Translations under genes and position numbers: made by a program
The notes under the pieces: model-generated
Seen by the model: the letters and a program-made list of their open reading frames with translations, nothing else
Database searches by the model: none
Told to the model about the DNA's origin: nothing
Source of the DNA: an uncultured Leptospirales bacterium
GTDB taxonomy: Bacteria > Spirochaetota > UBA4802 > UBA5550
Direction of reading: 5' to 3'
Length of the DNA stretch: 24,000 bases
Assembly (NCBI GenBank): GCA_964554685.1
Contig: CAZKPR010000020.1
Location: 4,536 to 28,535 of the forward strand
Part shown: positions 11,147-17,871 of the stretch, in pieces
Numbering within the stretch: position 1 is the stretch's first letter
Layout of the letters: each line of letters opens with the position of its first letter

Positions 11147-11162
11147 ATTGACCCGGGTCAAT
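11147..11162. promoter_or_regulatory. perfect 16-bp palindrome, candidate operator in the fdp/hgcA divergent control region
   Basis: ATTGACCCGGGTCAAT is its own reverse complement. It lies about 20 nt upstream of the -35 of the putative hgcA promoter. It is flanked by direct repeats CCTGTTTCA (11112-11120, 11139-11147) and ATTGTTGC (11105-11112, 11161-11168). Confidence 0.4.
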
Positions 11163-11181
11163 TGTTGCGAGAAAAAAAACC

Positions 11182-11210
11182 TTGACTGCTATTTGCTATT
11201 TTGCTAAATG
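11182..11210 (+). promoter_or_regulatory. sigma70-like promoter for hgcA
   Basis: TTGACT (11182-11187), 17-nt spacer (containing tandem GCTATTT), TAAATG (11205-11210). The -10 hexamer overlaps the first ATG of the ORF (11208), which argues for a downstream hgcA start (11226 or 11238). Confidence 0.4.
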
Positions 11211-12416
11211 ACCAAATATTCAAGAATGGACAGGCTGATGAAACAGAACTCGCCCGATCAGGGGCCGGCCCTGGCACCATCCAGCACCGGTAAACCGTTA
11301 GCGCCGGCCACCGGCCGCCTCGCCTCACCTGACCCCGGGGTCCTCCACGAGGCGGCGCGCGCCCTTCTCGCTCCGGGCCACGGGCCCGTGATTGCCGTTC
11401 CCGGAAGGGATAGTGTCCGCAGGGTCACACATGAGTGGACCGCCGCTGACCGGTGGGGACGCATCCGCGCCCGTATCGGTTCCTTCCGGATGAAGTATGA
11501 TGTCCCTCCCGGACTCTATGCCCTCGGCGATCCTGACAGCACGACGGATGTGTTCGTTTCGGCGAACTACAAGCTGAGCTTCGACATGCTCCGGCGCGCC
11601 CTCGGCTCGATCAGCGCATGGATCCTCGTCCTCGACACGAAGGGGATAAACGTATGGTGCGCCGCGGGCAAGGGGACCTTCGGCACGGCGGAACTGGTGC
11701 GCCGCGTCAGAGATGGCCGGCTCGCGGAGCGGGTCTCCCACCGGCGAATAATCGTCCCCCAGCTCGGCGCCCCCGGCGTCAGGGCGTCAGAGGTGAAGCG
11801 CGCGACCGGATTCACGGTATATTTCGGCCCGGTTGACGCCGGGGACATCATCTCCTACGTGGACAACGGTTATCGCGCAGATCCCGCGATGCGCCGGGTG
11901 CGGTTCGGCCTCACCGACCGCCTGGTACTCACGCCCATGGAGCTCCGACAGTCGGTGAAGTACGGCGTCATCACCTCCCTGGCGATCCTCGCATTCTTCG
12001 GCCTCCAGCCTCAGGGAATACTGTTCGCGGCCGCGTGGAACGAGGGCCGCGCCTACCTTCTATTTCTGTTCACGGCAATCGCGACCGGCGCCATCGCCAC
12101 TCCTGCCCTCCTCCCCGTCATCCCGGCCCGATCATTCGCCCTGAAGGGATGGCTCGCCGGGGCCGCGACGGTGGCGCCCCTCGCCCTGGCCTCCCCTCTC
12201 GGCGGTGGATCGCTCCTCTACGGGAGCGCGGCGCTCATCGCCTTCCCTCTGCTGTCATCATACCTGGCGCTTCAGTTCACCGGAGCCTCAACCTTCACTG
12301 GTCCCTCGGGCGTGAAAAGGGAACTGAAACTATTCCTCCCGATATATATCATCGGTGCGTGCGCCGCGCTGTTGCTCCTGGCGCTCTATAAAATCAAAAC
12401 GTGGGGGCTCCTGTGA
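11208..12416 (+). CDS. hgcA: mercury methylation corrinoid protein HgcA
   Basis: The diagnostic cap-helix motif GINVWCAAGKGTFGT is present (N-V-W-C-A-A-G-K encoded at 11649-11672). It sits inside a corrinoid-binding domain (FRMKYDVPPGLYALGDP...VFVSANYKLSFDMLRRAL...WILVLDTKG), followed by a C-terminal multi-TM domain. The start is uncertain (in-frame ATGs at 11208, 11226, 11238). The N-terminal ~60 aa are Pro/Ala-rich. Confidence 0.9.
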   Translation: MTKYSRMDRLMKQNSPDQGPALAPSSTGKPLAPATGRLASPDPGVLHEAARALLAPGHGPVIAVPGRDSVRRVTHEWTAADRWGRIRARIGSFRMKYDVPPGLYALGDPDSTTDVFVSANYKLSFDMLRRALGSISAWILVLDTKGINVWCAAGKGTFGTAELVRRVRDGRLAERVSHRRIIVPQLGAPGVRASEVKRATGFTVYFGPVDAGDIISYVDNGYRADPAMRRVRFGLTDRLVLTPMELRQSVKYGVITSLAILAFFGLQPQGILFAAAWNEGRAYLLFLFTAIATGAIATPALLPVIPARSFALKGWLAGAATVAPLALASPLGGGSLLYGSAALIAFPLLSSYLALQFTGASTFTGPSGVKRELKLFLPIYIIGACAALLLLALYKIKTWGLL

Positions 12417-12697
12417 AATACCTGAAAAACGTCGCAACCCTATCTTACGACGAGGCGCGGTGCACCGGGTGCGGCCGCTGCGTCGAGGTCTGCCCCCATG
12501 GCGTCTTCGAGATGAGTGGCGGGAAGGCGTCGATCCGTGACCGCGACCTCTGCATGGAATGCGGCGCCTGCTCCCTGAACTGCGACTTCGGCGCCATCGC
12601 GGTGACCGCCGGCGTGGGATGCGCCGCGGCACTCATCAACGGCATGATCACGGGCAACGAGTCGTGCGGCTGCGGCGGCGACGCCGGGTGCTGCTGA
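12413..12697 (+). CDS. hgcB: mercury methylation ferredoxin HgcB (2x[4Fe-4S])
   Basis: ORF 12401..12697. It has two CxxCxxCxxxCP-type clusters (CTGCGRCVEVCP, CMECGACSLNC), the HgcB-typical CMECGA motif (12551-12571), an additional Cys in VGCAAAL and a C-terminal vicinal pair ...CGCGGDAGCC. I prefer GTG 12413, which overlaps the hgcA TGA as GTGA and has GGGGG 6 nt upstream. GTG 12401 is the alternative. Confidence 0.9.
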   Translation: MKYLKNVATLSYDEARCTGCGRCVEVCPHGVFEMSGGKASIRDRDLCMECGACSLNCDFGAIAVTAGVGCAAALINGMITGNESCGCGGDAGCC

Positions 12698-12710
12698 AAG
12701 GAGGCACGCA

Positions 12711-15611: not shown

Positions 15612-16305
15612 TGGCGGCATCGTGACGGGAATCATTGCCGCCATCTGGTTCGGGGTGCTTACCTCCATCAGCCCCTGCCCCCTGGCGACGAATATCGCCG
15701 CGGTCTCCTTCATCGGCAGGAACGCCGGCGGCGCGGGGCGGGTCATGCGGGCCGGGGGGCTTTACCTCCTCGGCCGATCCCTCGCCTACGCTGCCGTGGC
15801 GGCCCTGGTGGTGTCGAGCATCCTCGCCATTCCGGCGGTGGCGGATTTCCTCCAGCGCCACATGAACCGGGCCCTGGGGCCGGTCCTCATCGTCGCCGGG
15901 ATGTTCCTCCTCGAGCTGATTCCCCTCCCCTTCGGGTCGGGGACCGACCAGGAACGCCTTAAACACATCGCCGAGCGGAACCTGATGGCGGGCTCGCTGT
16001 TGATCGGCGTGCTCTTCGCCCTCGCCTTCTGCCCGGTATCGGCGGCCCTCTTTTTCGGGAGCCTCATCCCCCTTGCGGTCGAGCACCGTTCTCCCCTGCT
16101 TCTTCCCGTCCTCTACGGGGCGGGCACGGCCCTCCCGGTCCTGGCCTTCGGGCTCATCCTTGCCTTCGGCGCCGGGCATCTATCGAGGGCCTTCAACGCC
16201 GTGACCCGCTTCGAGCTCTGGGCACGCCGGTTGACGGGGGCGCTCTTCATCATCATCGGGATCTACTTCACGCTCACCTTTATCTTCAACATACAACTCT
16301 GGTAA
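15601..16305 (+). CDS. CcdA/DsbD-like transmembrane protein, ArsG-like (aromatic arsenical efflux permease family, tentative)
   Basis: I prefer ATG 15601 (MGDDGGIVTGIIAAIWFGVLTSISPCPLATNIAAV...) within ORF 15361..16305. The first 80 codons of that ORF overlap the previous gene and look non-coding. The protein has about 6 TM helices and two conserved membrane Cys contexts (SPCPLATN, FCPVSAALFF). There is an 11-nt overlap with the upstream gene. Confidence 0.65.
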   Translation: MGDDGGIVTGIIAAIWFGVLTSISPCPLATNIAAVSFIGRNAGGAGRVMRAGGLYLLGRSLAYAAVAALVVSSILAIPAVADFLQRHMNRALGPVLIVAGMFLLELIPLPFGSGTDQERLKHIAERNLMAGSLLIGVLFALAFCPVSAALFFGSLIPLAVEHRSPLLLPVLYGAGTALPVLAFGLILAFGAGHLSRAFNAVTRFELWARRLTGALFIIIGIYFTLTFIFNIQLW

Positions 16306-16317
16306 GGGGCATTGAAC

Positions 16318-17403
16318 ATGACGGAACACATCGCTACAAAACTTTCCTTTCTCGACCGCTATCTCACGGTTTGGATCTTCGCCGCCATGGCCCTGGGGAT
16401 CAGCCTGGGGTTCCTCTTACCCGGGCCCGTCGAGGCCTTCAACCGTGCCCTCACCGTGGGGGAGCACACCAACCTTCTCATCGCCGCGGGACTCATCCTG
16501 ATGATGTACCCTCCCCTTGCGAAGGTCAAGTACGAGCTGATGCCGAAGGTCTTTGCCGATGGTAAAATTCTCGGCCTTTCCCTGCTGCAGAACTGGATCG
16601 TCGGCCCCGTGCTGATGTTCCTTCTTTCGATCTTCTTCTTCGGCTTCGCCGCCCCGGCCCTCTTCGGGCCCGACCCCCGGTGGGGCTATTTCATGACGGG
16701 CCTCATCCTCGTGGGCATCGCCCGCTGCATCGCCATGGTCCTGGTATGGAACCAGCTCGCCGGGGGCAGCGGCGAGTACGGGGCGGGCCTCGTGGCACTG
16801 AACAGCGTGTTCCAGATCCTGACCTTCAGCGTCTACGCCTGGTTCTTCGTCACCGTGCTTCCCGGCTTTTTCGGCCTCGAGGGGACGGCTGTCGACGTCA
16901 CGATCTTCGACATCTTCGTGAGCGTCATGATCTATCTCGGGATACCCTTCGCCGCGGGGATACTGAGCCGGGTGATACTCCTCCCGATAAAGGGAGATGA
17001 ATGGTACGACACCGTGTTTGTTCCGAAGATATCCCCGATCACCCTGGCGGCCCTTCTCTTCACCATCGTGGTTATGTTCAGCACCCAGGGCAGACAGATC
17101 ATTGACCGCCCCCTGGACGTCTTCTGGATCGCCATACCGCTTTCATGCTATTTCGTGATCATGTTCATGGCGAGCTTCTTCATGGCCCGACGGCTCGGCG
17201 CCGATTACGCGAAGAGCACCACCCTGGCCTTCACCGGGGCGGGGAACAACTTCGAGCTCGCCATTGCCGTGGCCATCGCCGTCTTCGGCATCGCATCCCC
17301 CATCGCCTTCGCCACGGTGGTGGGCCCGCTCGTGGAGGTGCCGGTCCTCATCGGCCTGGTGAACGTGGCGCTCTATTTCAGGAAAAGATTTTTTAAAGGA
17401 TAA
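16318..17403 (+). CDS. acr3: arsenite efflux transporter ACR3
   Basis: The ORF track starts at TTG 16312. ATG 16318 gives [28 protein letters not shown]..., the typical Acr3 N-terminus. Also present: [57 protein letters not shown] lies 8 nt upstream. Confidence 0.92.
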
Positions 17404-17409
17404 AACGAG

Positions 17410-17871
17410 ATGACCAAAGCAAAACTAAAAATACTCTTTCTCTGCACCGGCAATTCCTGCCGCAGCCAGATGGCCGAGGGACTGGCCCGGGCGCTCCGCG
17501 GGGACGCGGTCGAGGCGCGTTCCGCGGGCACGGCGCCGAAGGGGATCGACCCCCGGGCCGTTGCGGCAATGGCGGAGATAGGGATCGACATCTCGGGCCA
17601 GCGGTCACGCCACGTAAGCGAATTCACCGGCATTGAATTTGATTACGTGGTCACCCTCTGCGGCGGCGCCGCGGAGACCTGCCCGGTCTTCCCCGGGAAG
17701 ACGAAAGTGATTCATGTCGGATTCGAGGACCCCCCGGAGCTCGCGAAGGACGCGGCCACGGAGGAAGAGGCCCTGGCCCACTACCGCCGGGTCCGCGATG
17801 AGATCCGCGCCTTCGTGGAAGGACTGCCCGATTCCCTTGAAGAACGAACGGAGCGGTTTTCACTCACGTGA
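17410..17871 (+). CDS. arsC: arsenate reductase, thioredoxin-coupled LMW-PTP type
   Basis: KILFLCTGNSCRSQMAEG P-loop (CX5R), downstream Cys in VVTLCGGAAETCP, and DP motif GFEDPPE. It starts 6 nt after the acr3 stop. Confidence 0.92.
   Translation: MTKAKLKILFLCTGNSCRSQMAEGLARALRGDAVEARSAGTAPKGIDPRAVAAMAEIGIDISGQRSRHVSEFTGIEFDYVVTLCGGAAETCPVFPGKTKVIHVGFEDPPELAKDAATEEEALAHYRRVRDEIRAFVEGLPDSLEERTERFSLT

Follow-up and report, generated by a model that had tools for sequence, protein, structure and literature searches.

The locus considered here lies in a 24,000-nt stretch of contig CAZKPR010000020.1 from an uncultured Leptospirales bacterium (GCA_964554685.1; this whole 24-kb stretch is hereafter the window) and comprises ten consecutive + strand genes, which extend from position 11208 or 11238, depending on the start chosen for the first of them, to 17871: hgcA-hgcB-arsR-arsP-trx(ArsE-like)-DGC-arsF-arsG-acr3-arsC. 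The two genes of mercury methylation are followed directly by genes of arsenic resistance, and an ars-type promoter/operator is present only once in the window, upstream of hgcA.

Gene content of the cluster

The identities of the ten genes were assigned with NCBIfam and Pfam profiles; one further feature, a hairpin, lies between arsR and arsP:

11238 to 12416, + strand: hgcA, corrinoid protein of mercury methylation, 392 amino acids (NCBIfam HgcA_corrinoid, 391.5 bits, cut-off 275)
12413 to 12697, + strand: hgcB, 2x[4Fe-4S] ferredoxin, 94 amino acids, GTG start (NCBIfam HgcB_ferredoxin, 119.4 bits, cut-off 99)
12711 to 13058, + strand: arsR, ArsR/SmtB repressor, 115 amino acids (NCBIfam HTH_metalloreg, 80.3 bits, cut-off 55; Pfam HTH_5, 45.2 bits)
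13064 to 13078, + strand: short G+C hairpin CCCCCG-UGA-CGGGGG in the arsR-arsP spacer, with no U-tract (read from the sequence)
13113 to 14411, + strand: arsP, ArsP-family permease, 432 amino acids (Pfam ArsP_1, 246.8 bits)
14426 to 14662, + strand: trx, thioredoxin-like protein of the MTH895/ArsE family with a CAKC motif (NCBIfam TIGR00412, 108 bits, cut-off 62; Pfam Thioredoxin_3)
14678 to 15091, + strand: DGC-domain protein (Pfam DGC PF08859, 88.3 bits)
15129 to 15611, + strand: arsF, ArsF family, with a membrane anchor at the N-terminus (NCBIfam nitrored_ArsF, 105.2 bits, cut-off 60)
15601 to 16305, + strand: arsG, ArsG-family permease of the DsbD_2 fold, overlapping arsF by 11 nt (NCBIfam tranport_ArsG, 265.2 bits, cut-off 200)
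16318 to 17403, + strand: acr3, arsenite efflux transporter (NCBIfam TIGR00832, 410.5 bits, cut-off 282.8)
17410 to 17871, + strand: arsC, thioredoxin-coupled arsenate reductase of the LMW-PTP type, the last gene (Pfam LMWPc, 81.6 bits)

On re-measurement the nine junctions come to -4, 13, 54, 14, 15, 37, -11, 12 and 6 nt: the GTG start of hgcB overlaps the hgcA stop by 4 nt, as GTGA, and arsR begins 13 nt past hgcB with a strong AAGGAGG ribosome-binding site in front of it. This 13-nt junction is identical in a related locus, L002 (GCA_040768125.1; handles with the prefix L are used where loci must be told apart). The regulator arsR, the efflux pump acr3 and an ArsC of the LMW-PTP type, all on one strand, make up the set by which an ars operon is recognized, and the ArsE, ArsF and ArsG families, as defined by sequence, occur together with each above its NCBIfam cut-off. 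ArsC carries the P-loop CTGNSCRS plus Cys12, Cys84 and Cys91, which we take to be the equivalents of the catalytic C10, C82 and C89 of Staphylococcus aureus pI258 ArsC; on the NCBIfam arsC_pI258_fam model it scores 134 bits, under the equivalog cut-off of 174. Neither mer nor arsM is found among the genes of the window.

The HgcA profile match spans positions 1-321 of 325, membrane domain included, with a hydrophobic C-terminal half, and the cap-helix motif NVWCAAGK (11649-11672, residues 148-155 of the long open reading frame), which fits the pattern N(V/I)WCA(A/G)GK with its cobalt-ligating Cys, consists of residues that are invariant across 23 HgcA sequences. HgcB aligns with residues 2-94 to all 93 positions of its profile (1-93/93), bears two CX2CX2CX3C motifs, CTGCGRCVEVC and CMECGACSLNC (CMECGAC at 12551-12571), and ends in GCC. 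An N-terminal extension with at least one vicinal CC motif is seen in 13 of 23 related HgcA proteins (e.g. QSCCAPP; one has four CC pairs), while in the window HgcA and its closest relative the extension is about as long but contains no cysteine.

A previous reading of this DNA from its letters alone (the sequence-only reading) had described a ten-gene same-strand cluster with precisely these nine junction lengths, including the GTGA overlap and the 13-nt gap between hgcB and arsR; it had also called hgcA and hgcB clear from their motifs NVWCAAGK and CMECGAC and a C-terminal CC, seen no hairpin with a U-tract in the cluster but a weak one between arsR and the permease, and found no mer genes. 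All of this is borne out by the profiles, by re-measurement, with the motif coordinates exact, by a gene-by-gene check and by the terminator scan and folding given below. Its hgcA frame, 11208..12416, stands as to identity and end. The start, in contrast, is most likely the ATG at 11238, which L002 retains. The ATG at 11208 was rejected as the start on two grounds: it is contained in the predicted -10 box and operator, and L002 has ATT in its place.

The promoter and the predicted ArsR operator

The 80 closest relatives of the window ArsR were fetched from metagenomes, and their loci were annotated by tblastn with the window proteins. The nearest ArsRs, at 70-78% identity, almost all follow hgcAB, and homologues at 57-77% identity head hgcAB-free operons, e.g. 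arsR-arsP-trx-DGC or arsR-trx-acr3-arsC. In these hgcAB-free operons the element cTTGACa-N11-ATTTGGC-TATATT-GCCAAAT stands immediately upstream of arsR: it is a perfect 7-6-7 inverted repeat centred on the -10 hexamer, which a 17-nt spacer separates from the -35. Operator matrices of 44 nt and 24 nt were trained on 51 unique sites from the hgcAB-free operons only. Applied to the window, the 44-nt matrix returns one site, 11178-11221, directly upstream of hgcA, at 47.5 bits (training median 51.7, best of 100 shuffles 9.2, next and unrelated window match -9.1 bits); the 24-nt matrix has its sole match there too, at 32.0 bits vs at best 16.7 in 100 shuffles. The matrix scan finds no ars-type operator site before arsR in the window. 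The features at the site are:

11182 to 11187, + strand: -35 hexamer TTGACT of an ars-type promoter, which matches the cTTGACa block of the 51 canonical arsR promoters and is conserved in L002
11198 to 11217, + strand: predicted ArsR operator ATTTTGC-TAAATG-ACCAAAT, an imperfect inverted repeat, from the matrix match; the same element recurs in relatives

In its window form the promoter reads TTGACT-N17-TAAATG, with half-sites ATTTTGC and ACCAAAT, and the -10 hexamer, 17 nt from the -35, coincides with the 6-nt centre of the predicted operator (TAAATG, 11205-11210). Upstream of hgcA, the window and L002 have in common the footprint CTTGAC...TATTTGCTATTTTGCTAA.T..CCAAATAT, and the same block lies upstream of hgcA in L004 and L006, two more distant loci with hgcAB and then arsR.

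Across the 1.62 Mb of fetched loci, 86 sites score at least 18 bits: 65 directly before arsR, 12 directly before hgcA, five before arsP, three just past arsR near a contig end, and one at position 3934 of L162, in unannotated DNA about 2 kb upstream of arsR. Those 12 in front of hgcA represent every hgcAB-arsR locus with upstream DNA (among them L002, L004, L006, L084, L086, L088, L090, L091 and L094), and none of the 86 falls between hgcB and arsR. With the 7-6-7 repeat laid over the -10 box in 65 arsR-led and 12 hgcA-led loci, ArsR presumably binds this element as an autoregulator, and the repeat at 11198-11217 would be the operator of the ArsR encoded by the third gene of the cluster. The earlier proposal of an ars operon with hgcAB as its promoter-proximal genes agrees with these results, as the sole ars-type promoter/operator in the window is just upstream of hgcA.

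Some canonical operons have a second operator copy between arsR and arsP (L097 6352, L132 461, L135 5401, L161 565, L162 6442); the 54-nt spacer of the window has no such copy, only the short G+C hairpin. A full-text literature search for the operator half-site together with arsR yielded irrelevant papers only, databases of the RegPrecise type being outside its scope.

Related loci and the origin of the arrangement

The synteny survey that the sequence-only reading had suggested was run on 80 hgcA loci from species representatives, taken as the best 80 among some 600 stretches that matched; its frequencies describe this sample rather than a census. The window layout, with hgcAB and then arsR directly, is found in two of the 80 loci; arsR lies just upstream of hgcA in ten, other ars genes lie within 1.5 kb on the same strand in 16, an ars gene is present within 10 kb only in three, and the remaining 49 have no ars gene. 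Of the 16 with other ars genes, most belong to Bacteroidales and Fibrobacterota and show the order arsR-...-arsC-hgcA-hgcB-acr3. On the HgcA tree ars linkage undergoes at least ten changes of state, and hence the association of hgcAB with ars genes arose or was lost repeatedly.

Two loci, L002 and L084 (GCA_016932455.1; NCBI label: Spirochaetes bacterium), retain both the flanks of the window (MMPL, MntP, CDF-like and fprA genes on one side and GNAT-deacetylase, MCP and GT4 genes on the other) and the core hgcA-hgcB-arsR-arsP-trx-...-acr3-arsC. Their HgcAs are 82-83% identical to that of the window (83% in L002), and the ars proteins present are 83-98% identical, with ArsP at 97-98%. The middle of the cluster varies: DGC-arsF-arsG in the window, rhodanese-TauE-arsF-arsG in L084 and none of these in L002. 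Genes of the ars part have come and gone among close relatives, with a PhD/PIN toxin-antitoxin pair between acr3 and arsC in L002 (14629-15236) and the rhodanese and TauE genes at 12028-13238 of L084 where the window has DGC.

In the ArsR tree the 11 unique sequences encoded after hgcB group together to the exclusion of all others (36/40 neighbour-joining bootstraps), and the sister of this clade consists of canonical arsR-arsP-trx(-DGC) operons; the module arsR-arsP-trx-DGC recurs in many canonical loci and in operon C of Pseudodesulfovibrio mercurii ND132. The HgcAs of the hgcAB-arsR loci, which come from uncultured Spirochaetota, likewise form one clade, and the sister of the latter is a Spirochaetota/Leptospirales group that has a different ArsR (33-39% identical) upstream of hgcA. 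Because the same arrangement is present in every relative with upstream DNA, and because both ArsR and HgcA fall into single clades, it is most likely that hgcAB was inserted once, in an ancestor of this Spirochaetota lineage, between the promoter/operator and the arsR of an ordinary arsR-arsP-trx-DGC operon.

In a metagenome-assembled genome (MAG) labelled as Spirochaetes (L006 3483-14195, with L094 identical), operator-hgcA-hgcB-arsR-crp-FmdE-TauE is followed about 2.3 kb on by operator-arsR-arsP-trx-trx-DGC, and then by thiol-disulfide genes; this tandem may represent an intermediate, or the promoter/operator-arsR module may have been duplicated. In L034, from an uncultured-bacterium MAG, a gene for a UbiE/COQ5-type S-adenosylmethionine-dependent methyltransferase comes directly after hgcB (1736-2443), and a separate unit about 4 kb downstream carries arsR and the same operator.

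A second sequence element lies on the other side of the promoter from the cluster:

11147 to 11162, no strand assigned: perfect 16-bp palindrome ATTGACCCGGGTCAAT with a Crp/Fnr-like TTGAC-N4-GTCAA box, read directly in the sequence

It is kept in L002 (9906) and L084 (8438, as TTGATCCGGGTCAA) and is present as TTGAC-N4-GTCAA in L086 (4347), L090 (4212) and L091 (1315). The divergent fprA/hemerythrin-like gene starts about 135-155 nt from it in the window, L002, L084, L086 and L090, with L091 at about 115 nt, while its distance to the hgcA -35 varies across loci, between about 20 and about 230 nt. It was not seen among the listed upstream regions of canonical arsR-led operons, no scan aimed at it having been made. 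With this and its variable distance to the hgcA -35, ATTGACCCGGGTCAAT was rejected as the ArsR operator; as a Crp/Fnr-type box it probably serves the divergent fprA rather than hgcA. In the window it also occupies a class-I activator position with respect to hgcA, about 62 nt ahead of the predicted transcription start, and a Crp-family regulator gene follows arsR in L006, L094 and L089.

The fprA-like flavodiiron gene (9807-10994, - strand) has an in-frame TAG at codon 12 (10959-10961, MAITIKNNITW*GKTDWEL), at the position of which L002 and L084 encode Val (ITWVGKTDW; GTG in L002). The gene could be a pseudogene, the TAG could be an assembly error of the MAG, or translation could restart at a downstream GTG with loss of about 40 N-terminal residues. 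Just past fprA, at 8502-9775, are genes for MntP (manganese efflux) and a CDF cation-efflux protein, and the neighbourhood of the cluster as a whole is a small set of metal and redox-stress genes, kept in L002 and L084. On the far side the convergent GNAT-deacetylase gene (17890-19623) ends 18 nt beyond arsC. The other genes of the window code for an enoyl-CoA hydratase, a PAS histidine kinase, an MMPL transporter, MntP, the CDF transporter, the flavodiiron protein, the GNAT-deacetylase, an MCP and glycosyltransferases.

Predicted arsenic control and known systems

We consider it quite probable that the ten genes constitute a single ArsR-autoregulated operon. Judged by sequence they have the properties of one: a common strand, junctions of -11 to 54 nt and no internal terminator found. 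Terminator-like sites number 10 vs 6.2 +/- 2.7 expected, and all those on the + strand are weak and in coding DNA; the scan finds no intrinsic terminator on the + strand in the intergenic DNA of the cluster, none of the intergenic stretches of the cluster has a fold more stable than its shuffles, and an Rfam scan of the window gives no match, so there is no cobalamin or other riboswitch. The 61-nt arsR-arsP spacer folds at -14.8 kcal/mol (z-score -0.37 vs shuffles), and its hairpin, which recurs in L002 with one nucleotide inserted, has no U-tract and therefore does not qualify as a canonical terminator. A transcript would accordingly be expected to run from hgcA through to arsC.

The predicted mechanism is as follows. 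The sigma-70-type promoter (TTGACT, 17 nt, TAAATG; 11182-11210) is overlapped by the 7-6-7 repeat at 11198-11217, and without arsenic an ArsR dimer would occupy the -10 region and keep hgcA, hgcB, arsR and the seven resistance genes silent. Trivalent arsenic, i.e. As(III) and possibly methylarsenite, would bind the cysteines of ArsR and release it from the DNA, whereupon the whole unit would be transcribed; arsenic thus probably switches hgcAB on. Translation of hgcB would be coupled to that of hgcA via the GTGA overlap, and arsR would be translated from its own ribosome-binding site. The cysteines of ArsR include C79, C80, C82, C89, C107 and C108, with C37 and C82 invariant in the clade, and the vicinal ones (C79, C80, C82; C107, C108) resemble, we presume, the C-terminal As(III) site of the Acidithiobacillus ArsR.

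Several observations weigh against this account. The window operator is degenerate, with two half-site mismatches, and its -10 TAAATG is weaker than TATATT, such that repression or promoter strength may differ here from the canonical sites. The arsR-arsP hairpin could attenuate read-through, and a weak internal promoter in hgcA or hgcB is possible, with a sigma-70-like match of 9 of 12 positions at 12324-12352 (such matches number 3 vs 1.7 by chance). ArsR lacks the CVC triad of R773, reading ERCVNDL with one Cys, and a PDB sequence search for a characterised close ArsR returned as its best match only Rv0081, at 48 bits. Because there is neither a CVC triad nor a close solved structure, arsenic as the inducer is deduced from the operon content alone, and this is the weakest step of the mechanism. 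Finally, in ND132 hgcAB transcript levels did not predict methylation rates.

An unlikely alternative arrangement has two separate units adjoining each other, with the hgcAB transcript starting from the upstream promoter and ending at or near hgcB, and arsR-arsC read from a promoter inside hgcB. Internal promoters are common in long operons, and the weak match at 12324-12352 and the strong ribosome-binding site of arsR itself would suit such a division; yet promoter-like matches are not above shuffles, the hgcB-arsR gap is just 13 nt without a hairpin, and no ars-type operator precedes arsR in the window or in its hgcAB-arsR relatives, whereas 65 homologous arsR genes have one. Two units would require arsR to have lost its operator while hgcA gained one. 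Control of hgcAB by the same regulator and operator, but with S-adenosylhomocysteine (SAH) or another thiophilic metal such as Hg(II), Sb(III) or Cd(II) as the signal in place of arsenic, strikes us as quite improbable: it would be in line with the missing CVC site and the lack of a characterised close homologue in the PDB search, and ArsR2 of ND132 also responded to SAH-raising treatments. However, the ArsR clade consistently precedes arsP, acr3, arsC and ArsE/F/G homologues, an arsenical-sensing signature, its member here has the vicinal cysteines named above, and Hg did not induce hgcA in ND132.

The identity of the methylation genes themselves bears on what would be controlled. The sequence-only reading had proposed a check with curated profile models and had held out an affinity of HgcA to the fused HgcAB-like paralogues as the outcome that would tell against it. 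Both proteins score above the NCBIfam equivalog cut-offs, and HgcA reaches 182 bits on the fusion-paralogue model, below its cut-off of 285. A non-methylating paralogue adjoining ars genes by chance could be suggested by the extension of about 60 residues before the conserved HgcA domain, which is without the CC motif of most relatives. Against this stand the cap-helix Cys motif, the full-length profile coverage, a separate HgcB with a C-terminal CC, and invariant residues common to the window HgcA and 22 HgcA sequences; because of the model scores and these motifs, a paralogue is very unlikely.

The native function of HgcAB and the control of its expression are open questions in mercury biogeochemistry, and the abundance of hgc genes is a poor predictor of methylmercury production. 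At the level of sequence, the wiring described here argues that some uncultured methylators could turn on their methylation genes when exposed to arsenic, and arsenic co-contamination may then bear on forecasts of methylmercury production at some sites. With both the DNA element and the repressor defined, the control can be tested in vitro without cultivating the organism, and the operator matrix could flag arsenic-inducible hgcAB in metagenomes. We regard as doubtful the further idea that HgcAB has its native role in arsenical metabolism, with Hg methylation as a side reaction. Corrinoid-dependent methyl transfer to As(III) would in that case produce methylarsenite for export by ArsP, encoded two genes downstream, with HgcAB standing in for the missing ArsM; the repeated, independent embedding of hgcAB in ars operons at different positions would fit selection for co-expression with arsenic detoxification. 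In the accessible part of the work on ND132, deletion of hgcAB brought no clear loss of arsenic resistance, and its cultures gave no mono- or dimethylarsenicals, which is why action of HgcAB on arsenicals is disfavoured.

Links between hgcAB and ars genes have precedents, as the sequence-only reading had correctly stated: a preprint on ND132 describes an ArsR-like gene upstream of hgcAB, co-transcribed with them and arsenic-responsive, and arsenic induction of both hgcAB and the arsR5-arsP-arsE-DGC operon (bioRxiv 10.1101/2022.10.17.512643). By likeness to the latter, the window operon would come under arsenic control. The arsR2-hgcA-hgcB arrangement of ND132 and P. hydrargyri BerOc1 (Goni-Urriza 2020; Gionfriddo 2023) resembles that of the window in placing hgcAB in an ArsR regulon; arsR of ND132, however, lies upstream of hgcA, encodes an atypical four-Cys ArsR known only beside hgcAB and has no other ars gene co-localised. 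In the window, arsR is downstream of hgcB, its clade is elsewhere found at the head of ordinary ars operons, and seven resistance genes come after it.

That the association is not new in MAGs, as the sequence-only reading had also allowed, is evident from several reports in which hgcAB is flanked by arsR, acr3, arsC and arsM in diverse lineages (PMC7438021, PMC11984097). McDaniel 2020 records such neighbourhoods in "numerous diverse putative methylators", Spirochaetes MAGs included (PMC7438021 Fig. 6); the preprint by Gionfriddo et al. places ArsR-family genes beside hgcAB in Deltaproteobacteria, Nitrospira, Spirochaetes, Ignavibacteriae and Bacteroidetes; a geothermal contig in Gionfriddo 2020 has an ArsR-like gene and arsB downstream of hgcAB, with other genes between hgcB and arsR; and Peterson 2025 associates lower hgcA expression in a lake with arsR being present (PMC11984097; neighbourhoods in Fig. 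4). Unlike the operator-level wiring described here, the neighbourhoods of McDaniel 2020, Gionfriddo 2020 and Peterson 2025 concern gene proximity only, and the accessible portions of published hgcAB-ars accounts contain neither a promoter/operator definition nor a case of hgcAB between an ars operator and arsR.

Among the loci of our own survey, those of Bacteroidales and Fibrobacterota (e.g. L049, L055, L066, L082) are like the window in having hgcAB on the same strand and tightly packed with arsR, arsC, arsG and acr3; there hgcAB is distal or internal (arsR-...-arsC-hgcA-hgcB-acr3), whereas in the window it is promoter-proximal, and the HgcA tree makes these separate events. In L049, from a Fibrobacter, an ArsR of the same family (62% identity) has the same operator before arsR, and hgcAB are the last genes.

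ArsEFG is the organoarsenical (roxarsone/nitarsone) resistance module of Shewanella putrefaciens. The window has homologues of all three families, recognized here from the genes alone, and differs from that module in the DGC gene between its ArsE-like and ArsF-like genes and in its host, an anaerobic Spirochaetota MAG.

A further parallel to the wiring is offered by the canonical arsR-arsP-trx(ArsE)-DGC operons of anaerobes (e.g. ND132 operon C, DND132_2311-2314, which arsenic induces; L093, L132, L138, L162), which have the same ArsR clade, promoter/operator and downstream gene order. In these arsR comes first, right behind the operator, whereas in the window hgcA and hgcB lie in between. Co-localisation of hgcAB with ars genes and control of hgcAB by ArsR are already published; new are the operator evidence and the model of a single-origin insertion.

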